Below, piece by piece: positions 97-21,300 of a DNA stretch of 64,000 nt. Position 1 is the first letter of the stretch. Every line of letters starts with the position of its first letter. Made by a program: the position numbers and the translations under genes. Below the pieces are notes generated by a model. The model had not been told where the DNA came from. It was given only the letters and a program-made list of their open reading frames with translations, and made no database searches. The stretch spans positions 864,001 through 928,000 of the forward strand of contig CBDDIJ010000003.1 in the NCBI GenBank assembly GCA_965228855.1, given 5' to 3'. Source of the stretch: Candidatus Obscuribacterales bacterium (lineage in GTDB: Bacteria > Cyanobacteriota > Vampirovibrionia > Obscuribacterales > Obscuribacteraceae).

Positions 97-1725
97 GTGA
101 GTGTATTGATGAATAAACGAAGAAAGCGGGCTACTGCAATTCTGCTCGCTGCTGGATTACTTGCGGGCGTAAACACGGGTTGTTTTGCCGCTGGCCAAAC
201 TACATCTGTTCAAGGCAAGTCAAAACTGAACTCGAACAGCGAAAAGCACGTGAAGGTCAATGCCGGTTCCGGTTATTTAGAGGTGGCAATTGACACAGTT
301 GAGTTGATGGCACAGAAGGCGATCGATGATAAGACTGTCGTTGGAATGGCTGTCGCGGTGGTCAAGGACGATAAGGTCGTTTATTCCAAAGGGTTTGGCC
401 TCCGTGAGGCCGGCAAGGATGCGAAAGTGGATGGCGATACTGTTTTTCAACTGGCGTCGGTTTCAAAACCGATTAGTTCCACCGTGGTTGCGGTGCTAGT
501 CGGTGAAGGCAAAATCAACTGGGACTCGAAGATTTCAGATCTCGATGCGGGTTTTGAAATGTCTGAACCCTGGGTGACAAGGGAGATCACGCTGCGTGAT
601 TTGTACGCTCATCGTAGTGGGTGGCCGGAACATGCGGGTGATTTGTTGGAAGATATTGGATACAATCGCGAACAAGTGTTGCACCGTATGCGGTATCAAG
701 AGCCTGAAGCGAGTTTTCGCTCGCATTATGCCTACACCAATTTTGGTATCACGGAAGCCGCCGTTGCGGCCGCAAAAGCTTATGATACGACGTGGGAAAA
801 GGCATCTGAGGAGCGCCTATACAAGCCGTTGAAGATGAACTCGACGAGCTCCAGGTACAGCGATTTTGAGGGACGACCTAACAGAGCGCTGAATCACGTT
901 TCCATTAACGGAAATTGGGCGCATAAGTTTCAACGCCAACCTGATGCTCAGTCTCCGGCAGGTGGTGTGAGTTCGTCCGTTAACGACCTGGCGCAGTGGG
1001 TTCGCTTACAAATGGGTAAGGGCAAGGTTGATGGTGTGCAGGTTGTAGACGCTGCCGCATTGGCTGAAACGCATAAGCCTCATATGATGACGTCCTACAG
1101 TCCGTTGAATAATTTGCCCTGCTTCTACGGGCTGGGTATGAATGTCAACTATGACGAAAAGGCGCGTTTGCGCCTAAGTCATTCGGGCGCGTTCGCGATG
1201 GGGGCGGCGACAAATGTTTCCATGGCGCCTGAGCAGCAAGTGGGAATTGTAGTCTTGACCAATTGCTACCCAATTGGCTTCGCCGAGGCAGTTGGAAGCA
1301 CATTTATGGATGTGGCACTGGATGGCAAATCGAGCCGCGATTGGGTCGCTCTATACAAGAAAGTATTCGCGGACCCGACAACTCTGGGATTGAATCCGGA
1401 CGCGACTGATTATGGGAAGCCGCCGGCAAATGCGGTGGCGCCCATGGCTAACGACGCTTACGTTGGTACGTTTGCGAACGAGTTTTTCGGTGACGTTTCT
1501 GTTGCTACTAAGGACGGTGCTCTCGTAGTTAGGCTTGGTCCGAATGAGAGCGAACGGGCTCTGAAGCACTTCAATCGCGACGTCTTTTCTTTTGAAACCT
1601 TTGGAGAGAACGCGTCCGGTTGGACTGGTGTAACATTCACGGTGGGCGCCGATGGCAAAGCCAGTTCAGTTCAAATTGAAGCGCTGGATATTCACGGTCA
1701 GGGGAAGTTCAATCGCAAGAAATGA
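97..1725 (+). CDS. Secreted serine hydrolase (beta-lactamase class C / AmpC-like) with C-terminal DUF3471-like domain
   Basis: Signal-peptide-like N-terminus; F.LASVSK (SxxK), YTN (YxN) and HSG motifs. Start may be the ATG at 109. Confidence 0.88.
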   Translation: MSVLMNKRRKRATAILLAAGLLAGVNTGCFAAGQTTSVQGKSKLNSNSEKHVKVNAGSGYLEVAIDTVELMAQKAIDDKTVVGMAVAVVKDDKVVYSKGFGLREAGKDAKVDGDTVFQLASVSKPISSTVVAVLVGEGKINWDSKISDLDAGFEMSEPWVTREITLRDLYAHRSGWPEHAGDLLEDIGYNREQVLHRMRYQEPEASFRSHYAYTNFGITEAAVAAAKAYDTTWEKASEERLYKPLKMNSTSSRYSDFEGRPNRALNHVSINGNWAHKFQRQPDAQSPAGGVSSSVNDLAQWVRLQMGKGKVDGVQVVDAAALAETHKPHMMTSYSPLNNLPCFYGLGMNVNYDEKARLRLSHSGAFAMGAATNVSMAPEQQVGIVVLTNCYPIGFAEAVGSTFMDVALDGKSSRDWVALYKKVFADPTTLGLNPDATDYGKPPANAVAPMANDAYVGTFANEFFGDVSVATKDGALVVRLGPNESERALKHFNRDVFSFETFGENASGWTGVTFTVGADGKASSVQIEALDIHGQGKFNRKK

Positions 1726-1758
1726 GTAATAGAAGTTAGCCCTCGCGCTAATAGATGA

Positions 1759-2850
1759 ATGGAGGGCGACTTCGTGGATGGGCTGTTAGAAAAACTTGCA
1801 ATTCGCTTGCCGATTGTTCAAGCTCCTATGGCTGGTGTCTCTACGCCGGAAATGGCGGCGGCTGTTTCAAACGCGGGCGGTTTAGGTTCTATTGGAATAG
1901 GAGCGCAAACCGCAGCCCAGGCGCATGACACCATAGCAGCTACCCAAAAATTGACGTCCAACTCAATAAATGTGAACGTGTTTTGCCACCAACCGGCTTC
2001 TTCGGATTCTAGTCGCGAATCTGCATGGTTGGCTTATCTTGCCCCGTTTTTCGAGAGGTTTAATGCTCAGCCCCCTGCTCGATTGACCGAGATTTACAAA
2101 AGCTTTCTTGTTGATGATGACATGCTAAGTGTCTTGTGTGAGTTGCGTCCCAGAGTAGTTAGCTTTCACTTTGGCTTGCCTGAGCAAAGCCGAATAGAGA
2201 AGTTGCAGGAGAATGGAATCGTACTGCTTGCGACAGTTACCAACCTGGTGGAGGCGCTTGAAGCGCAGGAAGTTGGCGTTGATGCAGTTGTTGCTCAAGG
2301 CTTCGAAGCTGGTGGACATCGAGGTGTGTTTGATCCGGATGCAATCGATGATCAGATGGGTACCCTTGCATTGACTCGCTGGCTAGTTGCCAATCTGGAT
2401 GTGCCCGTAATTTCGGCAGGCGGTATCATGGATGGTGCTGGCATTGTGGCTTGTTTAAATCTTGGCGCTGCCGCTGCGCAACTTGGTACTGCATTCGTAG
2501 CTTGTCCTGAATCTGCTGCCGATGATTTTTACAAGGGGGCACTCTGTTCGGAAGCCGCGATGCATACAACGATGACTCGCGCGATCTCTGGAAGACCGGC
2601 GCGATGTCTAGCGAATGTTTTCACCGCGATAGGAAAGGAAACGGTTTCTTCCTCGATACCGGACTATCCGATTGCCTATGATGCAGGGAAGGCGTTAAAT
2701 GCCGCAGCAAAGAAAGCTGGCGAAGGCGGATACGGAGCGCAGTGGGCTGGGCAGGGAGCGCCTCTATCGCGCCCGCTCCCAGCGTCCGAGTTGATTGCGT
2801 TATTGGAAAGTGAGATGAATGACGTGCTCAAGCTCCAGTCCAGCATTTAG
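1759..2850 (+). CDS. Nitronate monooxygenase family flavoprotein
   Basis: PIVQAPMAG, VVSFHFG, QGFEAGGHRG, AGGIMDG, AQLGTAF and WAGQ motifs. Confidence 0.92.
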   Translation: MEGDFVDGLLEKLAIRLPIVQAPMAGVSTPEMAAAVSNAGGLGSIGIGAQTAAQAHDTIAATQKLTSNSINVNVFCHQPASSDSSRESAWLAYLAPFFERFNAQPPARLTEIYKSFLVDDDMLSVLCELRPRVVSFHFGLPEQSRIEKLQENGIVLLATVTNLVEALEAQEVGVDAVVAQGFEAGGHRGVFDPDAIDDQMGTLALTRWLVANLDVPVISAGGIMDGAGIVACLNLGAAAAQLGTAFVACPESAADDFYKGALCSEAAMHTTMTRAISGRPARCLANVFTAIGKETVSSSIPDYPIAYDAGKALNAAAKKAGEGGYGAQWAGQGAPLSRPLPASELIALLESEMNDVLKLQSSI

Positions 2851-2982
2851 CTCTCGATTGCGGTTTTTCTGGCGATGGTTTGGTTTTGAAATCGCCTAAA
2901 TATGGTTCAATCTATTAGTAGGCAGCGTTTCAGTTACAAGCTGCCTGGAAGCAGACGGTAGTTGGTTCAGACGTAACGGCTC

Positions 2983-4323
2983 ATGATTACGTGGGATTCC
3001 GGAAAGGTATTTCGTAAGCGAAGCACTGTGGTGGTGGTCGCTCTCTGCGGCGCGATTCTAAACAGCCAGGGCGCTTTCGCAATCGATGATAAGGATTTGC
3101 CCTCTTTCTTAAGACCGACCAAGACTGAAGAAAATGAGAGTGCAAAGGCTGACGAGATGTCTGATGCGCCGGAGGAGAAACCTTCAGAGAGGCGCGGAAA
3201 GAAAAGAAAGCGACTAAAGTCGGAAGACTCCCATGCTGAGCGGTCTTCCAGGAAAACAGGAGAGCCTATCGAGTCCGGTTCCGGTAGCGCGGAAGATGTT
3301 TCATCCGATAGAAATGGCTACGAGTCTGAGTTAGGGGCGGCATCACGGCCCGTAATGACTGCTGATCCGATTGAGACCGCGGCTGCCGGATCATCATCGA
3401 GACCGCCTTTGCAGGGTTCCGCTGAGGTGATGGAGGTAATTCTGGATGAACAACCTCTCTTCAAAGAAGCTCGTGCCTCAATCGAAAAGGAGGATTACGG
3501 CAGGGCGATTGGATATTTGCAGCAACTGGAAGCGCAGTTCGGCGAGGGCTACGAGCCGCTCAAAGCGGAGTGCATGTACTACGAAGCCGGCTGCCATCAG
3601 AAACTAAGCCGCCAGAATGCAGCAATGGACACGTATCATAAGGCGTTCGAATTGTTCGAAAAATATGACTCGTCCAATCCATTGAAGGGTAAAGCCTGGA
3701 ATGATTATTTTCGCTTGAAGCATCCGACAAAGCTCCAGGGAAATGTCGCAGAACAGGCTCCTTTAGGTATTTTGATGCCGCAGCGGGCGCAAATTGCAAT
3801 CGATCCGAACGCTGTCTTGGAAGTTAGGGACAATAATCGCGATATTCCTGTGCTCGCTGTGAATGATAAGGCGGTTCTACCGCTAATCGTCAAAGAATGC
3901 TTTTCGGACATGAATTGTTTGGAAACCGCTGAAATCGGTTCAAACGTAACCAACGCAACGCAGCGCTGGATGCCGCTCATGGTCTACGGTAAAGCAGCAG
4001 CGTTCGGCATGAATAGTTCTGGTACGGGACATCCCGCGTTCAAAGCCAAGGTGAACGGCCGCATGTACACGTTTGATGTCGTCCTCCCGAATATGGGGCA
4101 AGGCCTGCGAAAAATTTTGCTTGTGACGAACATGGAGAAGATATGCGCTGTCGATGTCGATTCTTTTGATACCTGGCTTTTGCGGATGACAAAGGCCAAG
4201 GATGGCAGAATTTTGACGGCTCGCTGGTTTAAGCTGACGCATATTAAACCGCATGTGCCTGTCGTTTCCCCTGCCGCGAATCCGCAGCAGCTCCTTCATC
4301 CCAATAGCAAAAGAAACTGGTGA
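2983..4323 (+). CDS. Hypothetical exported protein with charged linker, TPR-like helices and an unassigned C-terminal domain
   Basis: Signal peptide ending in AFA; charged low-complexity region; TPR-like pattern (YYEAGCHQKL...AMDTYHKAFEL). Confidence 0.65.
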   Translation: MITWDSGKVFRKRSTVVVVALCGAILNSQGAFAIDDKDLPSFLRPTKTEENESAKADEMSDAPEEKPSERRGKKRKRLKSEDSHAERSSRKTGEPIESGSGSAEDVSSDRNGYESELGAASRPVMTADPIETAAAGSSSRPPLQGSAEVMEVILDEQPLFKEARASIEKEDYGRAIGYLQQLEAQFGEGYEPLKAECMYYEAGCHQKLSRQNAAMDTYHKAFELFEKYDSSNPLKGKAWNDYFRLKHPTKLQGNVAEQAPLGILMPQRAQIAIDPNAVLEVRDNNRDIPVLAVNDKAVLPLIVKECFSDMNCLETAEIGSNVTNATQRWMPLMVYGKAAAFGMNSSGTGHPAFKAKVNGRMYTFDVVLPNMGQGLRKILLVTNMEKICAVDVDSFDTWLLRMTKAKDGRILTARWFKLTHIKPHVPVVSPAANPQQLLHPNSKRNW

Positions 4324-4342
4324 GGGTTTTCCGTCCAAATGT

Positions 4343-4376
4343 ATGAAAGGACAGTCCTTCGACCGTCCTTTCATTT
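4343..4376. terminator. Intrinsic terminator between convergent genes
   Basis: ATGAAAGGAC...GTCCTTTCAT inverted repeat followed by TT. Confidence 0.7.
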
Positions 4377-4464
4377 ATCGCGTGGTGCTAAGGTCGCGAT
4401 TTAACCTGTGCGCTTAATCACTGGGGTATGATTTATGAGCGCGTGCGAAGTGTTCGATTACCGG

Positions 4465-7329
4465 TCAAAGCCCGCCTCCGAGACCTCCATAGTTGTTTAT
4501 GATGAATGTTCCGACTAGGTGAGCGGCGATTGGTGCCACCAGAATTAGTATCGCTGCTTTCGCGAGGCGTTGGTTGCTGAGCGGTTTTTTCCCGTTTACA
4601 AAGAGAAATCCGACGATGCAAGCAATAACAAATGTCAGAGCGGTCGCAAACCGAGAGATATCACGGGCGGTATCATAGCCGAAATCCGCAATCTGACCGA
4701 TTTCGTTAGTCTGTCCATAGCGTGGATCGACGGGAGCCCCTACCAATCCTCCTCCTCCAAGTGTCTGCGGATGGACGTAGCTAAAGACCTTTTGTCGATT
4801 CAACTCGAATTCTCTTTGTTGTTTATCGTTTTCGAAAACGATGGCTCCTGTCGCTGGGGTCACGATGCGGTAGGTTGAGGCCAATGCTATTGCTGTGCCG
4901 TCTTCATCCTGATTGATTAGTCTCGACACTTCGTCACGTGCCCACAGCGCTGTAATTTGATTGGCAATCGTTGGATCTGCAATTAGAGTCTGAGGTTGTG
5001 CGGTCGTAACTGAACGCTGCAACACCATCGAAGAAGTTCCTCTATCTAAGCGGGAAATGAAAGTCGTCAGTTCCTTTCCGCTATGCACTGTGACTGATTC
5101 GATTGTTAGTTGATTCGAAACATCATCATTGTCGATCGAGTCGAGGAGTGCGTTTGGCTCTTTGATTGCGTTGTGGTTGACATCACGTTCCGACCTGGCA
5201 GGCGACATGCGCAAATCATACAGTCGGACGGGGTTGACTAGATCAAGTGCCTGTTTCTCCTGCGCACCGTAGGACATAGCCTGCGGACCGTGAATCCATA
5301 CGACGGCGCTGGCTGGCTTCTCTGCCGCTACCTCAAGAGCTTCTCTAAGTTGATTTCGGTTGTCCTGACCTCCGATGAATGCGTCCTCCGTGAGTTGAGC
5401 TAACGCTTGGTGTCGCGATTTGGGGACAATCTCTATTGTGTCTTGGTCTTTCTTGCTTTGTTCATGAACCAAATAAACTTTTGGATTCAGTTTCTGAGGA
5501 ATGCTGCTGAGGAGCTGCTTTATTGGCTCTATATCGGACTTGAGTGCGTCAGACATGTCGATAACTATTGACAAATTGCGGACTGCGCCGGCTGAGACCT
5601 TCTGGATCTGTTGCACTATGTATCTTTTACTTGGGGCGGTTACGTCCGGAACGGTCACCACCTGTGGTGCATCAGGGCGTCTCACTTTTATCGACTTCAT
5701 GCCCTTCAAGTTATCGTTAATCTTCAAAATTCCATTGAGTACATAATGGTTCGATTGCTTGGAACAGGTGACTCCCGGAATTTCTTCTGCAAGCATCTCT
5801 CCTGATTGCAGCGTGAAACGGTGGCGCTTTGGCTGAGAGAAATTGCTGCTCACGATGCGAGGTAAGCGCATGCTAGCTGCGTTCGCTTCAGTTGTCGTCA
5901 GGGGAAGTTTGAAACCAATCCTGATTTTCATATCTCGACCTTCGCCAGGAACCGGGAAACAGCGAACCAGAATTTTATCCTCTGCCAACATTTTGACAAG
6001 AAGTGAATCGCGTCGTGTGTTTACAATGTCCTCGGAAGCAGCCGTGGTCCGTCCAGCCGAGGCGAAAATTGCTTCTCGTTGTTTACCGTCCACCCATAGT
6101 GTCGCCTGCGATACCACGGCACCAGGAGGAAGTTCTAATTCAGCGCGTGCCTCTTGCTCGGTACCGGTTGCGTTGTGAAGAACAAGCGTCCAGCTCAAGT
6201 CTCCCGAGAGGCTTGCGGGATTCATATTTCCGGTCAACTGGGATTTCGCCAGCGCCAAGCCACTGATTTCGCTTCCGACATATTGATTGTAAGGCTGTGC
6301 ACTGTCCTCAAAGCGCGAGAGCTTGAATGGTTTACCTGTAACTCTAAAGTATAAGTTGCGGTCCAAATCTGTTGCCGCATCGAATCCGCGGTTGGGAAGC
6401 AGCATCTCTGCAAGTGCGAAACCGCTTGTGGGACTTGATGATGGACGGAGATCTTCATCGGTAGCTAATTTGCGTAAGCTCGCGATCGCTTCGATTTGTT
6501 TTTCTGTAGAACCGTTTTTCGCGTCGGACACTAGCGATTGAACATAAATTGATCGCCCCATCGGCGTGAGGACAAACAGCAGCGCAAGTAGTCCACCAAG
6601 AATCGAAAAGGTTGTTGTGATGCGGCTTATATTTGTTTCGGTTTTTCTCCAGAGTTCGATGTTTAGACAAGTGGCGGCAAATAGCAGGGCTGGGGATGCG
6701 CAAAGAAGCAGCATCCATCCTAATTTGCAGGATGGAGCGCCTGTCGTAACGAACATAGACGCTATCCAGATTAGTGTCCACGAAGCTGAGAGCCCGAGCG
6801 CGAGACCGTTCATAAGCCCGACCACGCGCGGATGCGCGATGTAGCGTTTTCGGACAGAACTCCAAACTGCAAAATTAAAGAATGGAACAATCAATAGAAG
6901 CAGCAACTTCCCCACAAGTTCAACCATGTTGCCTGGAGGCGAGGTTGCTAGAGAGAAAACGCCATAGCTCAGAAGACTGATGCCAGGAATAATAACGCCA
7001 AGCGTAAGAACAAAAACGCCTTCGAAAGGAGGGGCGAATGCATCATATTCTTTGTTCGCTCGGAATAAGAAACGCTCGGCAATTACGTGAAATGCGACAG
7101 CCAAAGCTGACAAGATCGTAAATGCTGCGAGAAAAATAACTGGTGTTTTCAGCAAACACACTGAGGTTGCGAAAAATATCGCGATAATTGAAAGGTACAG
7201 TGACGGCTCTTTGAAAATAGTTTGCTTGCCGCCTTCGTAGCCACTGATCTTGATTTCCGTGATTTCTAGATTCTCTGATGCTTCAGACGGGGTGTCAGGC
7301 TCTGATGGCTTGTCTATTGTGGTGGTCAT
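4465..7329 (-). CDS. Polytopic membrane protein with VIT domain, degenerate vWA region and C-terminal TM hairpin
   Basis: About 8 N-terminal hydrophobic segments; VIT-like EQEARAELELPPGAVVSQATLWVDG...RCFPVP; GGQDN; IVTPATGAIVFE. ATG at 7329 has a GGAGG RBS. Confidence 0.75.
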   Translation of the reverse strand: MTTTIDKPSEPDTPSEASENLEITEIKISGYEGGKQTIFKEPSLYLSIIAIFFATSVCLLKTPVIFLAAFTILSALAVAFHVIAERFLFRANKEYDAFAPPFEGVFVLTLGVIIPGISLLSYGVFSLATSPPGNMVELVGKLLLLLIVPFFNFAVWSSVRKRYIAHPRVVGLMNGLALGLSASWTLIWIASMFVTTGAPSCKLGWMLLLCASPALLFAATCLNIELWRKTETNISRITTTFSILGGLLALLFVLTPMGRSIYVQSLVSDAKNGSTEKQIEAIASLRKLATDEDLRPSSSPTSGFALAEMLLPNRGFDAATDLDRNLYFRVTGKPFKLSRFEDSAQPYNQYVGSEISGLALAKSQLTGNMNPASLSGDLSWTLVLHNATGTEQEARAELELPPGAVVSQATLWVDGKQREAIFASAGRTTAASEDIVNTRRDSLLVKMLAEDKILVRCFPVPGEGRDMKIRIGFKLPLTTTEANAASMRLPRIVSSNFSQPKRHRFTLQSGEMLAEEIPGVTCSKQSNHYVLNGILKINDNLKGMKSIKVRRPDAPQVVTVPDVTAPSKRYIVQQIQKVSAGAVRNLSIVIDMSDALKSDIEPIKQLLSSIPQKLNPKVYLVHEQSKKDQDTIEIVPKSRHQALAQLTEDAFIGGQDNRNQLREALEVAAEKPASAVVWIHGPQAMSYGAQEKQALDLVNPVRLYDLRMSPARSERDVNHNAIKEPNALLDSIDNDDVSNQLTIESVTVHSGKELTTFISRLDRGTSSMVLQRSVTTAQPQTLIADPTIANQITALWARDEVSRLINQDEDGTAIALASTYRIVTPATGAIVFENDKQQREFELNRQKVFSYVHPQTLGGGGLVGAPVDPRYGQTNEIGQIADFGYDTARDISRFATALTFVIACIVGFLFVNGKKPLSNQRLAKAAILILVAPIAAHLVGTFIINNYGGLGGGL

Positions 7330-7775: not shown

Positions 7776-9503
7776 ATGTCGAACCTCTGCTGGTTGGTGT
7801 TTTCGCAGATTAATATGTTGCAGTCTTCTAAAGCTTATACGCGTAGCAACTATCAACAGTCCGATCGGGTCGACTCTTCAAAACGGTCGGACCTGAAGCT
7901 CATGAGTTTGATTGTTGCCGTTGGCTGTTTGATGTTTTTACCGGGGCTGGGCGCGACCGGGATTTTGAACACCACCGATGCTTACTATGCGGAAGCTGCG
8001 CGGGAGATGTTGAATCGTGGCGATTTCATCACGCCCTATTTAAACTACCAGCCGTATTATTTCAAACCGATTTTGACCTACTGGGTGATAATCGCATCCT
8101 ACCTCACGTTTGGCATAAACACCTTCGCTTCGCGTCTGCCATCGGCCCTCTCCTGCATTGCAACCTCGCTTGCAATTTTCTCTCTGACCAAAGCTTTCAT
8201 TGGACGCAGAGCCGCTTTGATGGCAGCTCTTGCTCTGCTGTCTATGCCCTTAGTATCCGTGGTTGGTCATGTTTCAATTCCGGATACACCGCTACTTCTT
8301 CTCACGACGGTTTCCAGCTTGCTCTTGCTCGGCGCCCTCATACGTGGCGACAGCAAGGGTTTGATTCCAGCTTACGCATGCCTGGGTCTGGCAATGTTGA
8401 GCAAAGGACCGCTGGCGCTCGCGTTTGTTGGTGCGTGCGTGGGCGGCTTTCTCCTCGTAAGCAGCCGGTCCCTCGATCATTTTAAGCAGAGACTTCTGTC
8501 TCTTAAACCGATTCTCGCCGTTGCGGTATCGCTTCTGGTGGCACTTCCCTGGTTTGCCGCCGTGCATTTGTCATCTAACGGAGCTTTCACGCAATTCTTT
8601 TTCATTCAGCAAAACTTTGGGCGACTGTCCGGGCAGTTTCAATCGCACAATAATCCGGCATGGTTTTACATTCCCTATCTGGCTGGTGGCTTTCTGCCAT
8701 GGCTTCCAATGCTGCTCAGTGCGCCAGTAATTCTCCGCCCTCGATTCGAGAAGCGTCTGTCGGACAGCCCGCGAGTACAAATGACCGTAGCGTCGCTGTG
8801 CTGGTTGTTTGGAACGCTCGGGTTATTGCTTGTCTCGTCCTCGAAAGTCGCCCACTATTTGCTTCCAATCGCCTCTCCAATCGCAATTTTGAGCGGATTG
8901 TATTTTGACGCTGTTCTAAAACTCGGCCGACGCCGATTTGTTCTGTGGGTGGCACCGGTTATGGTGCTTGCTTGTGTCGGTAGCCTTTTCGCGTTCCCTC
9001 GCCTATTTGAAAACGAGGGGCAGTTGCAAACCCTCGCTTCAGTTTTTGTTTCTCTGCTCATAGTCGGCTACACCGCATATGGTGCGTTTATCTACAAATC
9101 TCAAATGCGGCTTGGCGTGGCTCTTTTGTTTGCCTGGAGTTTGCTCGACTGTGGATTGTTGGTGCCGGTTGCGATTCAGCAGACCTACCGCCGTGCTAAC
9201 GAAGAGTTTGTTTCTCTCGTAAAGCAAGCCAGTAAGGACAAGAATTCAGTAATTGCCGTTCGCGCGAATGACAGCGCTACCGCCGCTTTCTATGCGGGCA
9301 AGAAGATTTACGAGATTGAAGGACCGTTAGATTGCAAGAAAATTGTGGACACCACCCAGGGACCGCACTACTTTATTTTTGATGATAAGACGAATTCTCT
9401 TTTGCATCCATTTATCCCGGGGTCTCCTCGTGTAATCAGTACGGATGGTAAATGGAACTTGATCCTCGTTGAAAACGACTCAGCATCAACTTCTTCAAAC
9501 TGA
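7776..9503 (+). CDS. ArnT/PMT family (GT-C) glycosyltransferase
   Basis: D..YAEAAREML..GDFITPYLN, KPILTYW, RLPSAL, LSKGP and PAWFY motifs; many TM segments. Start codon uncertain. Confidence 0.88.
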   Translation: MSNLCWLVFSQINMLQSSKAYTRSNYQQSDRVDSSKRSDLKLMSLIVAVGCLMFLPGLGATGILNTTDAYYAEAAREMLNRGDFITPYLNYQPYYFKPILTYWVIIASYLTFGINTFASRLPSALSCIATSLAIFSLTKAFIGRRAALMAALALLSMPLVSVVGHVSIPDTPLLLLTTVSSLLLLGALIRGDSKGLIPAYACLGLAMLSKGPLALAFVGACVGGFLLVSSRSLDHFKQRLLSLKPILAVAVSLLVALPWFAAVHLSSNGAFTQFFFIQQNFGRLSGQFQSHNNPAWFYIPYLAGGFLPWLPMLLSAPVILRPRFEKRLSDSPRVQMTVASLCWLFGTLGLLLVSSSKVAHYLLPIASPIAILSGLYFDAVLKLGRRRFVLWVAPVMVLACVGSLFAFPRLFENEGQLQTLASVFVSLLIVGYTAYGAFIYKSQMRLGVALLFAWSLLDCGLLVPVAIQQTYRRANEEFVSLVKQASKDKNSVIAVRANDSATAAFYAGKKIYEIEGPLDCKKIVDTTQGPHYFIFDDKTNSLLHPFIPGSPRVISTDGKWNLILVENDSASTSSN

Positions 9504-9540
9504 CCCCTTCTCTTTGTTTTGGTTTCGTGTTTACCTTTCG

Positions 9541-9569
9541 TTGACAAAGGCGAGTTTCGCTCAGATACT
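9541..9569 (+). promoter_or_regulatory. Sigma70-type promoter of the serS leader
   Basis: TTGACA (9541-9546), 17-nt spacer, GATACT (9564-9569); predicted +1 coincides with the leader ATG at 9576. Confidence 0.75.
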
Positions 9570-9575
9570 GAGAAT

Positions 9576-9620
9576 ATGAACAAAGCAGCACATCGCAACT
9601 CGTCTTCCTCGTCCCCATAG
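9576..9620 (+). CDS. Putative serS leader peptide MNKAAHRNSSSSSP
   Basis: ATG...TCG TCT TCC TCG TCC CCA TAG: five consecutive Ser codons upstream of a terminator and serS. Confidence 0.8.
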   Translation: MNKAAHRNSSSSSP

Positions 9621-9661
9621 GACGCGGGAGTTTGTTCATCTAATTGTGTTATTGAACAAAG

Positions 9662-9692
9662 AAGCCCGCTTTAACCGAAAGCGAGGCTTTTT
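9662..9692 (+). terminator. Attenuator terminator hairpin upstream of serS
   Basis: AAGCC CGCTTT-AACCG-AAAGCG A GGCTT followed by TTT; its 5' arm can instead pair with GCGGG at 9624-9628. Confidence 0.8.
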
Positions 9693-9726
9693 GCATTGTA
9701 GTGCCTCGCGTATCATTGGAGGTACT

Positions 9727-10989
9727 ATGATTGATTTGGAAGAAGTAAAACGACAGCAAGCTAATTATCGAAAGGCGATTCTCAGCAAGCGAATTCCGCT
9801 CGATTTCGACACTCTTTTGCGGGTCGCAGAGGAGCGGAGGACCGCTCGCCGAGTCGTCGATGATCTCAGGCGGGAACGCAACAAGATCACTGCTCTGGTG
9901 GCAGCTGGAACTGCGCGCGCAGAGAACATCGAGAAAGGTCGTGCTGTCGGTGAAAAGCTAAAGGCGGAGGAAGCGCAACTGTTTGAATTGGAAAAAAGCT
10001 ATCGCAAATTAGCGGCGCTCTTGCCTGGAATTCCGGCTCCGGAGGTTCCAGAGGGTGAAACAGATGCGGATAACGTAGAAGTCAGAAAGCACGGAATACC
10101 AAGAGTCTTTGATTTCGAGTTTCGAGATCATCTGGAGCTGACCGCGTTGCATAAGATGGCAAACTTCGGTGGTGCCAGAGAAATTGCGGGTTCAAGAGCG
10201 TATGCGCTGATGGGAATTGGAGCGTTGCTTGAAAATGCCGTTCTGCAGTTTGCTCTGACCCACATTGTGAAGAAGGGCTTCACTGCGGTTCTTCCGCCGT
10301 TGTTGGTGAACGAAACCGCAATGTTCGGTACAGGATATTTTCCTCTCGGAGAGGACAGTGCCTATCATCTCGAAAAGGACAATCTATTTTTGACCGGCAC
10401 CTCAGAGGTCGGCGCTGTCGCGATACATGCGAATGAAACCGTCAATCAAGTCGATTTTCCACTGAGGTATGTTGGAATTTCGCCGTGTTTTCGCCGCGAG
10501 GCAGGTGCAGCAGGACGAGACACCAAGGGCTTTTATAGAGTGCATCAGTTTCAAAAAGTGGAGCAGGTTGTCTTTTGTTCAAATGATCCTGAAGTATCAC
10601 GTGTGGAGCATGATGCGCTTCTGCAAAACGCCGAGGAGATTGTGCAAGCTCTTGAGCTTCCCTATCGCGTGGTGGCAGTTTGCACAGGTGACATGGGGCT
10701 TGGTCAAGTGCGCAAGCATGACATCGAAACATGGATGCCCAGCCGAAATAGCTACGGCGAAACGCATTCATGTTCAACCTTCCATGACTTTCAGGCTCGT
10801 CGTTTGAACATTCACTATCGCGATGCCGATGGTAAGAAACACTTCGTGCATACGTTGAACAATACCGCTATCGCCTCACCTCGGATTTTGATAGCTCTCC
10901 TTGAGAATCATCAAAACAAAGATGGGACCATCAATGTGCCGAAAGCGCTCCGACCATATCTGGGTGGGACGGAATTGATGGAGCCCTAG
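9727..10989 (+). CDS. serS: Serine--tRNA ligase
   Basis: N-terminal coiled coil; GTSE, CFRREAGAAGRDTKGFYRVHQFQKVEQ and HTLNNTAIASPR motifs; ATG at 9727 follows GGAGG. Confidence 0.97.
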   Translation: MIDLEEVKRQQANYRKAILSKRIPLDFDTLLRVAEERRTARRVVDDLRRERNKITALVAAGTARAENIEKGRAVGEKLKAEEAQLFELEKSYRKLAALLPGIPAPEVPEGETDADNVEVRKHGIPRVFDFEFRDHLELTALHKMANFGGAREIAGSRAYALMGIGALLENAVLQFALTHIVKKGFTAVLPPLLVNETAMFGTGYFPLGEDSAYHLEKDNLFLTGTSEVGAVAIHANETVNQVDFPLRYVGISPCFRREAGAAGRDTKGFYRVHQFQKVEQVVFCSNDPEVSRVEHDALLQNAEEIVQALELPYRVVAVCTGDMGLGQVRKHDIETWMPSRNSYGETHSCSTFHDFQARRLNIHYRDADGKKHFVHTLNNTAIASPRILIALLENHQNKDGTINVPKALRPYLGGTELMEP

Positions 10990-11649: not shown

Positions 11650-12398
11650 GGTGGTGCCTGCTGATTTGATTTGCGTTTGGGACATTATATAAGTGTGCGC
11701 TGAAAGAGAATGTTTGATGTTCGTGCTCGTGAATGTTTTCTTCCTCATATATAGCCATGTCTCGGTGCCATGTTCCGACGAGCCGCCTGACCACGCATCG
11801 CCGAGAGCTGATATATAAGGAACACACTTGGCGTGTCGCTAGTAAGTTTTCTGAGCGTAAGTCTATTTCATTGAATGAACGCTGAAGGATGTGACCAGAT
11901 GTGCACCTTCGCGATCGGCGTGTGATCGGAACAAAAAACAAGCCTGGTAATGAAAAATGACATTCCTATTCGCCGATCGAGTAATTGCGTTAGAACGCTG
12001 GAAATTCCCAGTGGGTAAGGCTTTTGCCGCGCTTGTTGGATTCTCGCGCAATTAATATTGCTTGCTGGGATCCTTCAGAATCCGAGTACTTTAGAGGTCA
12101 AGATATATGCTGTTGCCAATTGTAAACGAGAAATTTTTCAGAACCAATTTTGATAAATCCAACAAGGGCTCAGAACAAATAGACGAAAGTTTTTTTGAAA
12201 AGGCAATTTGAATCCTTCGCTTGACGACCGGTGGTAGGAAACGGTTTAACAGCGTGTTATGTTTTGCAGCGAATTAGACGGCGGTATTCTCGAGATTCCG
12301 CCGCCCAAAAACCTTTTGATTAGCTCCCGGCGACGGGAGCCTGATTTGTATTGGCGTACTAGTCGCCGAAATCGAAGTGACACCTTAGAGGATTGAAA

Positions 12399-15300
12399 AT
12401 GAGTAAGAAAGTGGTGCGAAGTCGGGAATCCTACATCAAAAACTGGACCGCAGCTATCTGGGGATCGGTGATGGTCGTAGCGTCTGGAGCCGCAGCTCAA
12501 GCCGAAGACCATCAAAACTTCAGAGATTTCCGCGATGCGAATCCCGGTTTCGATCGTCATACGCTTCGTCAGATGTATCGCGCTGAGTTTGGTCGTGGTG
12601 GCGCAGGTGGTGCTTCAAACGTTCCTGACGCCGGCACCTTTAACATCATGCCGGTACCGAATGTACCTTCGACCAGTAACGTCACAATCACAGAGTCGCG
12701 CGGCAAGTGGGCTAACCGTCTCGAACGCAATAATGGCGTCATAAAGCAATCCGTTCAATCTAATGACAGCGGCAAGCTGGTGACACTGAATGGCGGCGTC
12801 AATCTCGACCTCACGTCACAAGCACGCAATATCACCCTCGGACAGAAGCTGTTCAGTGGTGTTTCATCAATTGAAATTCAAGTTGGCGGCGAAACCAAAA
12901 CTCTCACTGCTGGTTCACAAGTCACGGCAGCCGAGTATATCGCTGCAAAACAAGTTCTCGCAGGAACCGCTCAGAAAGTTGCAATCAGCTCTAACGGCGT
13001 TGCGACTGGCGGTGAAGTCGACCTTTCCGCTATCACCTCTCGCGGCGACGTGATGAGAGCATCCGACCTCGTCGTTCCGGTCAATGTCACCACACTCGGT
13101 GACTTCTCAAAAGGTTCCGAATTCAAACTTCAAGGTGACTTGAATAACTTTGGTACCGTTCATGCTCTGGACGGTTCCGGTAATGGACGCGGTGGCACGA
13201 TTAGAGCCGTTGATATCAACAACAATGCAAACGCTTTGATCTCATCCGACGTTGATCTCACGCTACGCGCAGACGGCCAGCTCACCAACCTCGGCAACAT
13301 TACTTCGAATGGCAGTTTGACGTTGACTTCTAGCAACGTCACTAACCGCGGCAGCATATCCTCCGCTAAAGACGTCAATTTGAATTCGCCGACCGGCGCT
13401 ATGAATGTTGACAGCGCAGGTGGCACTATCTCCGCTGCCAACAATATTAATGTCGATGTGAACGCTGACTCGACATTGGCAGGCGGTAACTACCTCAGCC
13501 AAAACCTGAACCTGAATGCTGGTGCTGGAACAATCACCGCCAATCTGGACAATGTGACCGGCACAGTCAATGGCACAGGATATGCGGTTCACTTCGCATC
13601 GCAATCCGAGACTTTGAACCTGGGCGACCTGAACTTGATCGATCCCACGTTCTACAACATTGGAAATATCAATTTCACCGGTGACGTGATAGTCGCTGGA
13701 AACGCGTTGACTATCATCGCGACCGGCAACATCACCGAGTCTGTGGTGGGACCGTTTACAGTGAGCACCGCCAATGGAGCCGGCAATGGTGGCGACCTCA
13801 CAATGATCGCTGGTGCGAATATCACAGCTGCGGGTGGTCCGGGTAACAACACCGTAGGAGCAGGTGCTCCTACACAAGTCACCTTCAATGAAGGTTCCAT
13901 CGGCGGAGGAAGCATCCTTCTTAACGAAGTCCAACTCAACACGACAGGTGCTGGCGGTGGTAATGGCGGAAACGTCCTCCTCGCTGCGTTTGCTGGCACC
14001 ACAGGTGGTTCCGGAAGAGTTGATCTCGGTGTCGGAGTTTCCACTATTCAAACTTCTGGAGACGCCGGTGTCGGTACAAACGGTAACGTAACAGTCATTG
14101 CATCGAGAGGCATAAATCTTGGCGGTGCGGGTAGTTCAATAAATGCTGACGGCGGACTTGCTGGAGCAGGAACGGGCGAAGTCCGAATCACTTCCGCTCA
14201 GCCTGTGACGGGTGGACCTGTCACGTATGCTGCTGACGGAAGTCTTGTGTCCGGTCAGGTCACAGCTGGAACAACCTTGACCAATTTCACTGTGAACGTA
14301 CCCAGCATTACGGCCAGTGGAATTGTCAGAGTGGCTTCCGGCGGCGACGTCAATGTATCTGACATCACTACAAGCGGACCTCTCGCTAACGTTGTGCTCT
14401 TGTCAGGTGTCGACCAGTTTACGCTTGCGCCTACAAACCCCTCGGCGAACCTGACCATAAACGGAGATGTAACCGCGAATGGTGCTGGTAGCCAAATCCT
14501 TGCTGCTTCCGGAAACAACCTCAGCACCGTCGATGGTGCTGACTTAGTTGCTGATGGCAATATCGGTTTCGTCGTTGGCGGCAATTTCAGCCAACTCGGA
14601 GCGATATTTGCTCAAAACGGCGCCGTCAATGGAACCGTTGATGGTGACTACACACTCGGCACTGACCTGCTTGATTTTGTCGCTGGAGCGTCCGGCGTGA
14701 CGGTCGCCGTGAACGGCGACTTGATTCAATCCGCAGTCATCGAGGCTGGTGCTGGGGCTAGCCTGGACGGTAGCGTCAACCTTCTGATCGGTGGAGACTA
14801 CACTGCGACGTCGGCAGCTGCCAGCGTGCTGGCTGGACAAGGTGATCCCGGTTATGTCGGCACTGTGACAATTTCCGCTCAGAATTTCTCAACGGCATCA
14901 GGCTCGACCATCAGAGGTCGTAACGTCACGCTGACTTCGGATAGCACCAATTTCGGTTCTTTCAATCTCAACGGTCTGGTCGACGCTAATGGAACCGGTG
15001 CGCAAGGCGTATTGACCTTGACGCAAAACGGTACTGTTCAAACGGACATGACTGATACGAACTTCTCGGGTGGTTTGCAGTCACGCCAACTGACGATCAG
15101 CAACAACACTGGTGGCAACATTCAGTTCCTCAACAACACGGCTACTTCATTCGACTTCAACAACGTCACGGCTAATGCTGGTGGCGACATCACGTTCATT
15201 GAAACCACGCTCGATGGTGATGGAAGTATCAACTTCACAGGTTCCAGCTTCGCTGGTGGTTCGTTTACCGCACTTGTCGATACTGACCTTTCAACCGATA

Positions 15301-18300
15301 TCGCTTCGATAGTTGGCGGTTCCTCGGGTGAACTCAGAAGCAGCAACGGTAACATCGGTTCGACCGGCAACTTCTTCGAGACAGATTTCGGAAGTATCAT
15401 CGTACAAGCACTGGGCGGACCATCGCCGACTGCGGGCAACGCTTACATAGGCGGCGCGAACGGTTTGAACTTCGCCGGCGGCAATTCGCAAATTACGGCT
15501 GATCTAGCCGCAGTTGCGCTCACCGGGGATATCACAACGGACGCGACTTCGACTGTCAGCGTCGGTGGAGCTGCTGATTTGGCAGCTCAAGTCGGTAACA
15601 TCGGTACTGGATTGCTGAACCCATTCCGTATCGACGTCGGTACCGGAGTTGGACAAGGCGTTCTTGCAAATGCATCGGGCGATGTGTTCCTCTATGACGC
15701 CAACGGCGCTGCTATTGCAAATGGAAGCGCTGCAACTTCGACAGCAGGAGGAACCTTCAGCTTCGTAGTCGATGGTGACCTCGCTGTCAGGAACAACGTG
15801 TCTGCTTCCACTGGTGACTTGATTCTTCAAGCAAATGCTGGTGGTGACTTGACGCTAGACCCAACAGTTCAAGTCAGCGCCGCAGGTGACGTAAACCTCG
15901 CTGGAACAAACATCTCTGGTGGCATCGATACTCTGGTCTCAGGTAACAACCTCACGGTTGAGCTCTCCGGACTGGGCAACATCTACACCAATGTGAATTC
16001 GATAAGCACCGATATTGGTGCAGGTGATTTGACCATCAATGAATATGATGGCATCACGATCGGCTCCCAATCGGTCGGCGACCTGACCGTCAATGCATCG
16101 CTTGTCTTTGGTGGAGATGTTGATACCACTGCTGACTTCACGATGGATACATTCACCGTCACCAATGACGGTGGTTACATCAACATCAACAACCAGATCA
16201 CTGCTAACACTGCTGCTTTGCTCGATACGACCGGTGGTACCGGCGGAATCGGAGGGCTGGGCACACTGTCAACTCCTCTGGCTGGTTTGTTTAGCGACAG
16301 CGGCGATATCGTTCTTACGGTCAACGGCGTCGCAGGTGGCGACACGACAGTCACAGCGCAAGCTGGCGCCGGCGGAAATGTCGACCTGACCTACGTAGGC
16401 AGCGGTACTCTGACCCTCGATGGCAGCTCCGGTAACGGTGATTACTTCGTCGCTACCACGGATGGTGCCGCTTCTGTCGAAATCTTCGATAATATCGACG
16501 GAACGGGTGTGTTGGACATCACGACTAACACACTGGCGTTCGTCAACCCTGTCACTCTCGCTTTCGACAGCGCTAGCGTTCAAAGCTTGGCTGGCAGCGG
16601 TCTAACGCTTGACGGTGGCGATGCCATCAACGGTGGTAACTTCGTGACTACCGTAGGCGGCGCTGGCGTGAGCTTCACGGCTACCGACGGCGACTTCACT
16701 GTTTTGAACAAAACCAACTTCGTTGGTGGCGATGTTTTCGTGACCCTCGCAAACAACAACGGAATCAACGCAGTTGACCTCACCGCCATGGGTGCGAACC
16801 TGAACGGTGATGCTCAGCTGTTCCCACCGGGTAACGACATCACAATTAGAGCCGCCAACATTCAAGGGAATATCGGTACTGCGATTACGAACTTCAACCA
16901 AGTAACTGTTTTGGGTAACACAATCCACAACAGCAATGGCGACGTTCTTCTGCCCACCAACCTGGTATTCTTTGGACAGAACCTCTCGATTATCGCCTCC
17001 GGCAATGTAACCGCCACTGGTGCCACATTGATTGATCTGTCATCCAACGTCGGCAACGGCGGAAGTTTGATTATCCTGGCCGGTTTCGCAAATACTCCCC
17101 CGACTGTTGGCGCCGAGAACACTGCTAACCCTGTGGTAATCACAGGATTCAGCGGAACTGGCGGTAGCGTAGATCTGACCGGGGTCAACATCATCACCAG
17201 CGCGACAGGTGTCTCCGGTGACGCCGGCGACGTGACCATCATCGCTGCAGGTGGCAGCACCCTCGGCAGTGGAGCCGTGACGGCCGGGAACATTACTGCA
17301 ACGTCAGTAAATGGTTTCGGCGGAATGGTTTCGCTTGCTGGTTCTGCTGGTGTCACCGTAGGTGATATCACCACTACTGGTGGAGTCGCTGGCGGTGACG
17401 TACTTCTAGGAGTCGGAACGGTCGCGATCATCGGAACTCCAACCATCACCAATGGTGTACTGAGCGGAGGCGGTTTCATCCCTGATGCACTCGCACCGGG
17501 CAACCTGACATATGGAGCTATCAACGCCGGCAATGGCGACGTCGCTCTGGCGGGCGCACTCACTGCTGGCGATACCGTGAGTGGTGGATTCATTCAAGCG
17601 GATAATCTTGAAGTGGCCATGGGCGACGGAACGGTTTCGCTGAATGTTGACGCTAACGAAGTTCAGGCCGATGCCACAGCTGGCGTAGGCGGCGGAACGT
17701 TGACGGTGAACGAAGCCGGCAGCATTAACGTCGATCACATCGATGGAAATCTGGATGTAAACATCAATGCCTTTGCGACCATCAACATCATTGGCAGCAT
17801 CAACGCTGGAACCGGTGCTGTTGAACTTGGCGCTCAGGACATCACCACGAATGCTTCCAAAGTCATCGCTGATAGTCTCGATCTCAATGTACTGAACAAT
17901 GCAACGGTCAACACCAGCGTGAACACGCTGACCACGACCACTGGCACTGGTTTCAGCATTGTGAACGAAGACAATGGTATCGACCTCGGTTCGCAGGCAT
18001 CCGGCGCATCGCTGGTCGTGAATGCGAGCCAAGTTGCCTCCGGTGATGTGACCACATCAGCTGATTTCGTCCTTGACTCCCTCACCGTCAGTAACGCTGG
18101 TGGTGATATCGTCATAAGCAATGACATCACCGGCACGAACGGTGTCGCACTCGACACCACTGGTGGACCTGGTGCCATCACTGGGTTGGGATCTGTTTCT
18201 TCGCCGATCATCGGACTCAATTCCGGAGCGGGCGGCATCGACCTGTCAGTCAATGGACTGCTGGATGGGGACACGAGCCTCAACGCTGCAGCTACCGGCG

Positions 18301-21300
18301 GTAACGTCAATGTCGACTATGTCGGTACCGGAGTTCTGACGCTTTCGAATAACAGCACCGGCAACGTTGATTACAACGTCTCCGCTCTTGGTGGCAGCAT
18401 CGTGATTCGTGGAGACATCGATGGAACCGGTGATGCCACTTTGACCAGTGACGATATCTCGTTCTCAGATATCAGTGCCTACTCACTGACCTTCAACGAG
18501 ATCACTCTCAACAGCGTAACTGACCTGACTGTGAGCGGCGGTGTCAATGGTGGTACGTTCAATTCGACCGTGGCCACGAACTTCAACGCCACCAATGGCG
18601 ACCTCACCACCAACGACCAATTGAACTTCAATGGTGGCGATGTCTTCGCGACATTGCTGGTCAATAACGGAAGCAATGCGTTCGTGAACAACGGAATCCT
18701 TAATGGAGATGGCGCATTTGATGGAGACCCAACGGCAAACTCGTTGACCATCACAGCTGCTCTCATCACCCCAGGAACGATTCAGAACTTCAACAATGTG
18801 TTCTTCCTCCAAGGAAACACGATCATCAACACCACCGGTGATGTAGTTCTCCCGACCAACCTGGTGTTCCAAGGTCAAGATCTCGCGATTATCGCCTCTG
18901 GCAATATCACCGCGACCGGAGCAGTATTGATCGACCTGTCTTCTACAACTGGAGACGGTGGCGATTTGCTGGTCCTGGCTGGTTATGATGCTACCGGCGT
19001 CACTGGCGGTCAGCAACAGACCCAAGACCCGGTCACCGTGACCGGCGTCAGCACGACCGGCGGAAGTGTTGACTTCACGGGAGTCAACATCATCACGAGC
19101 AGTTCGTTCGCAGGCGGCAGCGCCGGCAGTGTAACCATCATTGCAGGAAGCACCACTGGTGCTACCAACGCAGGCGATGTGACAGTCGGCAACATCACGG
19201 CTGAAGGTGACTTGAACGGTGGACTGGTAGTCGTCGGTGCATTCGGCAACGCATCTGTCGGAAACATCAGCACGATTGGAACGAACGGTCAGGGTGGATC
19301 CGTTGTTCTCGGCAGCGGTACGGCAACATTGGTCGGACCTGTAGTCGTGACAAATGGCAGTCTTACGACTGGCAGCTTCGTTCCTGGAGTGCTCTCCGGT
19401 GGTGATGTCGCTTACGGTACGATCAATGCAGGAACCGGCGACGTCGACCTGGCAGGCGCTCTGGATGCCGGCAACAGCATCGCAGGCGGTGCAATCACAG
19501 CCGACAGAATCGGTTTCGTGATCGGATCCGGAACGGCTTCAGCAACCGGCAACTTCAACAGAGTAACTGTTGATGCCACCACCTCAGCTGGTGGCAGCGT
19601 GACGGTCACTGAGAACGACGACATCATCCTGGATGACGTCTCCGGTACTCAAGTCAACGTCACGGTTAATGCGTCCGGCGATGTCTCCGTTGATGGAGAT
19701 GTGAGCTTCGGTACTGGAACACTCAACGTGAGTGCCGCCAATATCGTTCAAGGTATCGGCGGATCGGTCACAGGTTCCAACCTGAGCCTCACTGCAGTTA
19801 ACGATGCTACGTTGACAACGAATGTCACAACCCTGCTGAATAGCTCAGCTGACAATCTGACGCTATTCAATACCGGTAACTTGACGGTTAATGATTTGAC
19901 CATCGGCACGGATCTCAACCTCACCAACACAGGAACGCTTACCTTCAATGGTACGACTACCGCTGTTGATGTGAATGTCACCAACACTGGTGCACTGACG
20001 ATCGGTGATATCACGGCTACGGGTGCGATAAATGTCGACAACACCGGCGACGCCACTGTTGCTGGTGCGCTATCCGGAGCAACTGGTCTCTCCATCGATG
20101 CGTCGGGAACGTTGGCTGTGAATGCGGCTGTTTCCTCTACCCTGGATGTGAACCTGCTGGCTGATGGCAACGTCACGGTCGGAGCCGATGCCACCTCTCT
20201 AGATGGTGACCTCAACATCGTCTCCCAAGCTGGCTCTATCACCACTGCAGATGACGTCACGCTCCAGGGCAATGATTCGATTCTCATTCAGACGGTCGGT
20301 GGCGGCACAATCACGATTGGTGCAACGAACAACATCTTCACCGATGCGGCAGTGAAATCTCCCGGAATCGGAAACGTCACCATTCTGCAAGGTGCAACTC
20401 TTCCAGCTAAGACCAAAAACCTCAAAGGTAGGAACATCATCGCCATCACTCAAGATGACGGAACTGTCCTCACCGGCAGAGGTAAAGGGACCAAGAAAGT
20501 TGTGTTCAATTCCCCAGACAATACATTGTCCGGAATCGGCGCTCAACTCTTGATCGTCGCATCGGCAAAGAATGGTGTCATCATCGGCGGTGGTGCCACG
20601 ATTACAGCTGACCCACCGGTTGCAGCAGGTTCGGCTATCACAGTATCGACCTGGGGCAAGGCGGATGCAGCTCAACAAGCGGCTCCTACCACTTCAACCG
20701 AACTGCCCGCATCGCTGGCAAGCATCACCGCACCAGCAACGGTATCATCGGTCAATATGGTGACTGCAACCAACGCGACCACAACGACTGGCAAAGATGC
20801 TCTCAAGGGCACGCTTTCCAATCTGGCTTCAGCCAACAACCTCAGCATCTTCGCAGCGCAGGAAGATGACTCGACCATCACCGGTTATGCGCCGGTCGGT
20901 CAAGTGGTTGACGGTAAGGTCTGCAGCGATATCGAATTCGGTTTCGCTACAGGTGCGGCCGGTAACGGTGTTTCGACAATCAAACACAGCGACATCGTCA
21001 CTCTCGACAATGGCACCGCTCTGTTCGTACCGTCGAAGGACATGATGGTCGTAACGCCGAAGGGCAAAGTCAAACTTGGCGCTAACTCGGTAGCTGTGGT
21101 CAGCATCGACGGTAATCAACTCTCGGTGTACGACATCAACGACAACCACAAAGGCAGCGTAGTAGTTGCCGCCGGCGGTCGCGAATTGTCGCTCTCACCA
21201 GGACGTCACCTGATCGTCACCAACGATCGCGCAGCATCCTTCGCGGAAGCTAACCCGATCGAATCGATCATGCACCGCGCAGTCAGCCGTCATGAACTCG

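Follow-up and report, generated by a model that had tools for sequence, protein, structure and literature searches.

A putative serine-sensing leader-peptide attenuator upstream of an accessory serS gene in Obscuribacterales

The serS locus and its leader

The window, a 64 000 nt stretch of a Candidatus Obscuribacterales genome (contig CBDDIJ010000003.1, positions 864 001 to 928 000), carries at 9727-10989 a gene that the earlier note had read as serS. The product scored 427 bits against the seryl-tRNA synthetase (SerRS) profile TIGR00414 (cut-off 302), which bears out that assignment. A long ORF from GTG 9646 was rejected as the start of serS because the alignment of relatives begins at ATG 9727. 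The leader and the gene consist of the following parts.

9541-9569, + strand: sigma-70-type promoter TTGACA-17-GATACT (-35 box at 9541-9546, -10 box at 9564-9569)
9576-9620, + strand: leader ORF MNKAAHRNSSSSSP*, 14 codons, without a Shine-Dalgarno (SD) motif
9600-9614, + strand: five TCN Ser codons (TCG TCT TCC TCG TCC), the putative sensor codons and protector segment 1
9620-9639, + strand: segment 2, which can partner segment 1, the 5' end (via 9631-9639) or segment 3 (via GCGGG, 9624-9628)
9631-9660, + strand: spacer hairpin, seen in the terminator and antiterminator folds alike
9662-9692, + strand: intrinsic terminator-like hairpin 3:4 (9662-9689, with a bulged A at 9684) and a U-tract reaching to 9692
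9700-9709, + strand: segment 5, which can pair with 9681-9687 (terminator 3' arm, 7 bp) or with 9719-9726 (serS ribosome-binding region, 8 bp)
9718-9722, + strand: serS SD sequence GGAGG, which pairs with segment 5 when the fold is unconstrained
9727-10989, + strand: accessory serS, 420 aa, ATG at 9727, sharing approximately 38 % identity with the housekeeping SerRS (G000:C3:2697160)

Most of the architecture drawn in the earlier note held. The promoter is present, and is the sole promoter-like match within 9200-9900, agreeing with the consensus at 10 of 12 positions; shuffled sequence yields 0.6 comparable sites, so the match by itself is not significant. The leader ORF with its five consecutive TCN codons was confirmed in the sequence, the proposed terminator was found as a hairpin with its U-tract, and every position is paired in the two protector helices (9610-9614 with 9620-9624, and 9576-9584 with 9631-9639) and in the further helix between 9681-9687 and 9703-9709. 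The proposed antiterminator stood in part. Both of its helices are complementary throughout, and GCGGG 9624-9628 pairs with CCCGC 9665-9669 as described, but the pairing of 9631-9638 with 9653-9660 forms in both folds and is not specific to the antiterminator; this hairpin is therefore better read as a spacer that would draw segments 2 and 3 together. Three features had been missed: this serS is a second, accessory copy, whose housekeeping counterpart carries no leader; the leader ORF is probably leaderless; and segment 5 is able to sequester the serS SD.

The leader as a whole (9576-9729, 154 nt) folded with a z-score of -4.77, and none of 200 shuffles was as good. An Rfam search of the window returned no family at gathering score, neither a T-box nor a leader family, and a T-box riboswitch or other known RNA family was rejected on this basis. 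A terminator belonging to the upstream gene was also rejected, as the hairpin lies downstream of the promoter and is retained where the upstream flanks differ. A contig guessed to be RNA covers the leader (9516-9710); its start lies before the promoter, and it may derive from DNA.

The two serS genes of this genome are approximately 38 % identical to each other. A serS match was present in 97 of 107 Obscuribacterales genomes, and the accessory type, with 50-100 % identity to the window gene, occupied 48 loci in 47 of the 107; a housekeeping serS was also found in 45 of these 47. Accessory and housekeeping SerRSs were split by a single branch with support of 100 in a quick tree, and in a FastTree reconstruction with a midpoint root the accessory enzyme fell apart from the native one and clustered with SerRSs from other lineages, among them Peribacteria, Planctomycetota and Bacillota. 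This suggests that accessory serS was acquired from outside; since these are a quick tree and a FastTree tree without an outgroup root, no donor is claimed. The motifs that we take to be those of class II synthetases look intact in the alignment of the accessory enzyme. A second, divergent SerRS beside a housekeeping copy, the two falling in separate tree groups, is a feature of the AbmK/SerRS2 type. No albomycin-type biosynthetic cluster was found around accessory serS, the flanks being an ArnT-like gene and an opposite-strand ORF, and a plasmid search gave no close copy of the accessory SerRS (best match 47.9 %).

The gene directly upstream (7776-9503, + strand) encodes an ArnT/PMT-like glycosyltransferase (NF009784, below cut-off). 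In most relatives it does not lie next to serS. Elsewhere in the window, a 3040-aa ORF rich in Gly, Thr, Asn and Ala (12393-21515, + strand) resembles by eye a large secreted adhesin-like protein.

Conservation of the Ser leader and sister leaders for Thr and Met

Upstream regions were compared for all 48 accessory serS loci and for 23 housekeeping serS loci, a subset of those found. In 45 of the 48 accessory genes the upstream region held a TTGAC-type box and, 34-36 nt further on, an ATG that opens a short ORF with a Ser cluster (at least three Ser in six codons). At least four Ser in six codons were reached by 43 of the 44 leaders from the first locus survey. None of the 23 housekeeping loci had four Ser in six codons, and three had three, behind poor -10 boxes. 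The earlier note had proposed looking in relatives for a conserved poly-Ser ORF and covarying helices: the in-frame run is kept at these 45 loci, and the helices covary. Runs of (TCN)5 are not rare (469 over both strands of the 8.2-Mb genome); despite this the leader is beyond chance, because promoter, ATG and Ser run recur together at 45 of 48 orthologous loci.

The Ser run is always in frame and starts at codon 9-13. The peptide ranges from 13 to 44 residues in length and is unconserved outside the run. TCN codons made up 220 of the 224 run codons in the 44 leaders, compared with 66 % of Ser codons in the long ORFs of the genome, a comparison in which related leaders are not independent; all four third bases occur among them. 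These observations bear on two alternatives to codon reading. In the first, a protein such as SerRS or a ligand would bind an RNA-only switch, with the TCN codons kept for pairing and the ORF incidental. In its favour, the 1:2 helix has the TCN codons as its 5' strand, and AGY codons could be nearly absent for that reason. However, third positions vary freely, the frame shared by the run and the ATG at the predicted transcription start is kept even as the distance between the two varies from 8 to 12 codons, no Rfam family matches the window, and sister leaders (below) switch to Thr or Met codons matching their genes, making a switch of this kind very unlikely. The second alternative, to which we give marginally less weight still, is an arrest peptide, whose amino acid sequence would let it detect an antibiotic or metabolite that binds the ribosome. 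The uORFs of arrest peptides likewise use terminator/antiterminator switches, but the peptide here is unconserved outside the run, and the run consists of the very amino acid that the downstream synthetase uses.

Three accessory copies have no intact leader. In one (L015, genome G024) the leader is degenerate: its Ser run is interrupted, and a tandem 13-nt repeat lies after the -35 box, upstream of the leader ATG. This leader has possibly decayed or been rewired. The other two (L055 and L057, in G102 and G098) are a sister pair with no leader within 480 nt; their upstream DNA is repetitive and T-rich.

Outside Obscuribacterales, two of the 51 nearest relatives for which upstream sequence was available had a short ORF with four Ser in six codons within 400 nt of the gene, neither of the design seen in the window. 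One (L112) uses mainly AGY codons and sits in what we take, from its motif, to be a T-box; the other (L120) has scattered Ser codons in a frame running to the gene start. A leader that is a general trait of this SerRS type was rejected on these grounds.

The gap between the -10 box and the leader ATG is 6-7 nt in 44 of the 45 leaders, and none of the 45 has GGAG, GAGG or AGGA at -16 to -4 of that ATG. Usual sigma-70 geometry would make the A of this ATG the first transcribed base. Given this geometry and the lack of an SD motif, transcription probably starts at 9576 and the leader ORF is probably translated leaderless.

A genome-wide scan gave seven candidates among 179 short leaderless-like ORFs. 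Three of the seven combine a TTGAC box and top run scores with a matching gene: Ser before serS, Thr before a second thrS, and Met before metB and ask. The Thr-codon leader (G000:C3:2639751, + strand) precedes the second of two thrS genes in the genome. Among the related loci (L151, L183-L189), a Thr run was found before six of seven accessory thrS genes, the seventh having only 133 nt of upstream sequence, and before none of 23 other thrS genes; a terminator was present in five of the six Thr leaders. In two Thr leaders the terminator arms resemble those of one Ser-leader class, hinting that Thr and Ser leaders share a scaffold.

The Met-codon leader (G000:C2:1924127, - strand) has a strong terminator-like hairpin and lies before metB, a cystathionine gamma-synthase gene whose product scores over the profile cut-off, and an aspartate kinase gene. 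At the metB loci (L152, L153-L182), at least three Met in seven codons were found at 20 of 30, and at least two Met at 23, of which 21 have a terminator. The genome scan detected no codon-run leader before serA, which is present in the genome. The change of codon type with the downstream gene is the best argument that the Ser run is read by the ribosome, beyond any role in pairing. Leaders with Met codons have been described before metG in Deinococcus deserti (PMC4007540) and before metN in Streptomyces lividans (PMC8079986), and no Met attenuator on biosynthetic genes was found in the literature searched.

Competing helices and modelled ribosome positions

For tests of the helices, leaders were thinned to 30 at less than 80 % identity, and 26 of these entered the segment tests; three were too divergent to anchor (L015, L018 and L054) and one had no segment 5 motif (L017). 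Duplex energies of each leader's own partners were compared with those of partners swapped between leaders, with 5000 permutations and three decoy pairs as controls. Own partners were favoured in all five helices: 1:2 (-11.5 own vs -8.0 swapped), 3:4 (-14.7 vs -11.9), 4:5 (-15.1 vs -13.5) and 5:SD (-9.4 vs -7.7), each with 0 of 5000 permutations as low, and 2:3 (-11.4 vs -10.4; 2 of 5000). The decoy pairs showed no own-partner preference (851-4853 of 5000 permutations as low). These permutation figures overstate the case, because motif-based placement of segments fixes the central pairs and because kin are not independent; for 2:3 and 4:5 the median swap was beaten in just 12 of the 26 leaders. 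Nucleotides 11-20, intended as a negative control for the 5'-end helix, also favoured their own spacer (1 of 5000). Either the 5' part may form one long protector or relatedness may inflate this result.

The overlaps expected of an attenuator are present in the sequence: the antiterminator overlaps the terminator 5' arm, the protector overlaps the sensor codons, and an intrinsic terminator-like element lies between the leader ORF and the gene. In a MAFFT alignment of 24 leaders the terminator stem was 90.6 % paired, with changes on both sides at three of eight pairs. Of 30 leaders, 28 showed a hairpin with a U-rich tract behind it, although the one chosen in L015 is not the true hairpin. The terminator carries a bulged A in approximately 20 of 26 leaders, and some leaders have a perfect stem. 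As a result of the bulge, the terminator 3' arm fits segment 5 better than it fits segment 3. The 4:5 helix has seven positions, each paired in 23-26 of 26 leaders. The 5:SD pairing is solid at just four positions, the fourth being C-G in 17 leaders, U-A in six and broken in three, and the flanking positions pair in 6-17 of 26. In the unconstrained fold of the window leader the serS SD is paired at 0.93. Segment 5 pairing with the SD is likely to form a second, translational lock.

Regulation could instead be mainly translational, through exposure of the SD as in mycobacterial polycysteine leaders, with the bulged hairpin acting as a poor terminator. The strongly paired SD, the well-kept 4:5 helix and the frequent bulge would all fit, as would the weakness of many terminator stems, which reach only -7 to -11 kcal/mol (stem without its A-U base). 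We nevertheless consider mainly translational control unlikely, since hairpin and U-rich tract are retained in nearly all leaders, the basal pairs of the terminator covary, perfect stems occur, and the 5:SD pairing is short and missing in some leaders.

The effect of ribosome position was modelled by placing a footprint on nascent RNA ending right after segment 3. Pairing of the 2:3 core was 0.20 without a ribosome, 0.48-0.77 with a ribosome on earlier codons, 0.85-0.92 with the A site at -1 to +3 of the first Ser codon, and no more than 0.08 at +8 to +15. For the window leader, pairing was 0.31 without a ribosome, rose to 0.8-1.0 with one on codons 3-13 (1.0 for the Ser codons) and fell to 0.01 with one at the stop codon. 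Ribosome position alone does not single out Ser, as the model of the window leader also favours 2:3 on codons 3-8 (0.8-1.0). Once the 3' arm was included and the ribosome was placed on the first or the middle Ser codon, equilibrium still favoured the terminator in 20-21 of 28 leaders, and the two folds of the window leader lie 0.6 kcal/mol apart (-21.8 vs -21.2 kcal/mol). In the folding check proposed in the earlier note, nascent RNA favours 2:3 with the ribosome on Ser codons, but the full terminator usually wins at equilibrium. Near-equal folds and a terminator that wins at equilibrium imply that antitermination must be kinetic, dependent on the order of folding.

Proposed mechanism, physiological role and relation to known systems

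Conservation of the in-frame Ser run, covarying exclusive helices, position-dependent folding and cognate leaders for Thr and Met support the Ser-sensing attenuator that the earlier note had proposed, with function deduced from these features. We put the probability that the leader is a ribosome-mediated attenuator which senses Ser-tRNA and gates the second serS at roughly 0.87. From the sequence, its conservation and complementarity and the gene duplication, all of which are observed, we infer a start site, translation, stalling, termination and induction along the following lines. The leader AUG would supply the first base of the transcript, and ribosomes would bind this 5' end directly, with no SD. 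When Ser-tRNA is plentiful, translation would continue as far as the stop codon, where the ribosome would sit over GCGGG; in a leader free of ribosomes, GCGGG would be hidden by the 1:2 protector. In either case the 3:4 terminator would fold, ending transcription near 9692, and in any read-through RNA the serS SD would still be masked by segment 5. With Ser-tRNA scarce, a stall on the TCN run would block segment 1, so that GCGGG could take CCCGC before the terminator 3' arm exists; the freed 3' arm would then pair with segment 5, releasing the serS SD.

The second SerRS may be kept as a backup for serine starvation or for resistance to an inhibitor. In the latter case the same stalling switch would respond when the housekeeping SerRS is inactivated or inhibited, perhaps by a mimic of seryl-adenylate (the warhead of albomycin is one), and the second SerRS would be a resistant form. 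This refines the main explanation and does not replace it. The gene is a divergent and patchily distributed second copy alongside a housekeeping one, its product groups with SerRSs of other phyla, and a second thrS is under like control. A precedent exists in Streptomyces, where, according to work by Vecchione and Sello in 2010, an auxiliary antibiotic-resistant TrpRS is reportedly under ribosome-mediated attenuation. Resistant second SerRS, IleRS and TrpRS genes with approximately 30 % identity are described in reviews (PMC9437257, PMC9032320). However, accessory serS lies outside any biosynthetic cluster, with the glycosyltransferase gene and an unassigned ORF as neighbours, a close plasmid copy was not found, and plain amino-acid sensing would account for a Met sister leader on biosynthetic genes. 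A role in resistance is accordingly a real possibility, with the odds somewhat against it. The fullest version, in which a family of leaderless attenuators has been retuned between Ser, Thr and Met, a five-segment relay operates, and a foreign-type, inhibitor-resistant SerRS is switched on only upon failure of the housekeeping enzyme, is more speculative, and we would expect it to be wrong in some part. If true, accessory serS would confer inducible resistance, with ribosome stalling as the means of detecting the inhibitor, and would point to unrecognised inhibitors of SerRS (and ThrRS) in these habitats.

The class of mechanism is a textbook one (PMC1183508), and a pheST attenuator and predicted trpS and leuS attenuators on synthetase genes have been described (PMC1262725). 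The leader shares with Escherichia coli pheST and the classical trp, his, leu, thr and ilv leaders a short ORF with a cognate run, a 1:2 protector, a 2:3 antiterminator and a 3:4 terminator, and with pheST a synthetase gene as its putative target. It differs from these in its Ser codons, probable leaderlessness, 4:5 / 5:SD relay and accessory target, and it has no sequence match to the Rfam leader families of classical attenuators. Leaderless leaders on synthetase and biosynthesis genes are listed for D. deserti (14 entries in PMC4007540, with Tyr, Thr, Trp2, Met, Asp, Leu, Cys and Phe ligases) and S. lividans (eight entries in PMC8079986, with alaS, thrS, trpS and leuS among the targets), and no Ser leader is among these 14 and eight entries. 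Like the present leader they carry cognate residues and precede synthetase genes. Their start sites were mapped to the leader AUG, whereas here a start at that position is predicted from sequence. The Streptomyces TrpRS reportedly likewise pairs a second synthetase gene with a cognate-codon attenuator, but there the amino acid is Trp and the enzyme is reported to be resistant, whereas here the codons are Ser and resistance is putative.

Mycobacterial polycysteine leaders are leaderless sORFs, as the present one probably is, ending in a homopolymeric run with a hidden downstream SD; there the codons of the run base-pair with the SD region, giving translational control with no terminator (bioRxiv 10.1101/834739), whereas here a terminator-like hairpin is present and the SD would be reached through a relay of helices. 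The serine T-box, as on Paenibacillus serine genes (PMC8002221), shares the signal of uncharged tRNA-Ser and a terminator/antiterminator output, but it binds the tRNA directly and has no ORF, and the window has no T-box match. His leaders are known on hisS paralogues in bacilli (PMC2965389). The main text of PMC4833913 mentions neither serine nor serS. The earlier note knew of no poly-Ser attenuator for serS, and none for Ser or serS was found described in open-access full-text literature. Ser specificity, probable leaderlessness, two probable layers of control and an auxiliary target are thus probably the new parts of a known mechanism.

With a Ser attenuator, serine would join the amino acids that classical leader peptides read, and attenuation would extend to non-photosynthetic relatives of cyanobacteria. 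It would also show when a duplicated synthetase is used, and the SD relay would be a compact case of one stalled ribosome governing both transcription and translation. The 154-nt leader could serve as a ready-made reporter of charged tRNA-Ser. TCN codons are the starvation-sensitive Ser codons in Bacillus subtilis (PMC3862929), and the TCN-only run would test the idea that this class is the sensitive one.

In the genome of the window (G000), ARAGORN listed tRNA-Ser anticodons CGA, GGA and GCT (twice), plus a tRNA-Sec. TCA is the commonest codon in the Ser runs of the leader family, yet tRNA-Ser TGA was not listed; its absence may be an assembly gap, as the genome is 95 % complete. One assembly (G011) contained two accessory serS genes (L011 and L049), each with its own Ser leader, in addition to a housekeeping copy.
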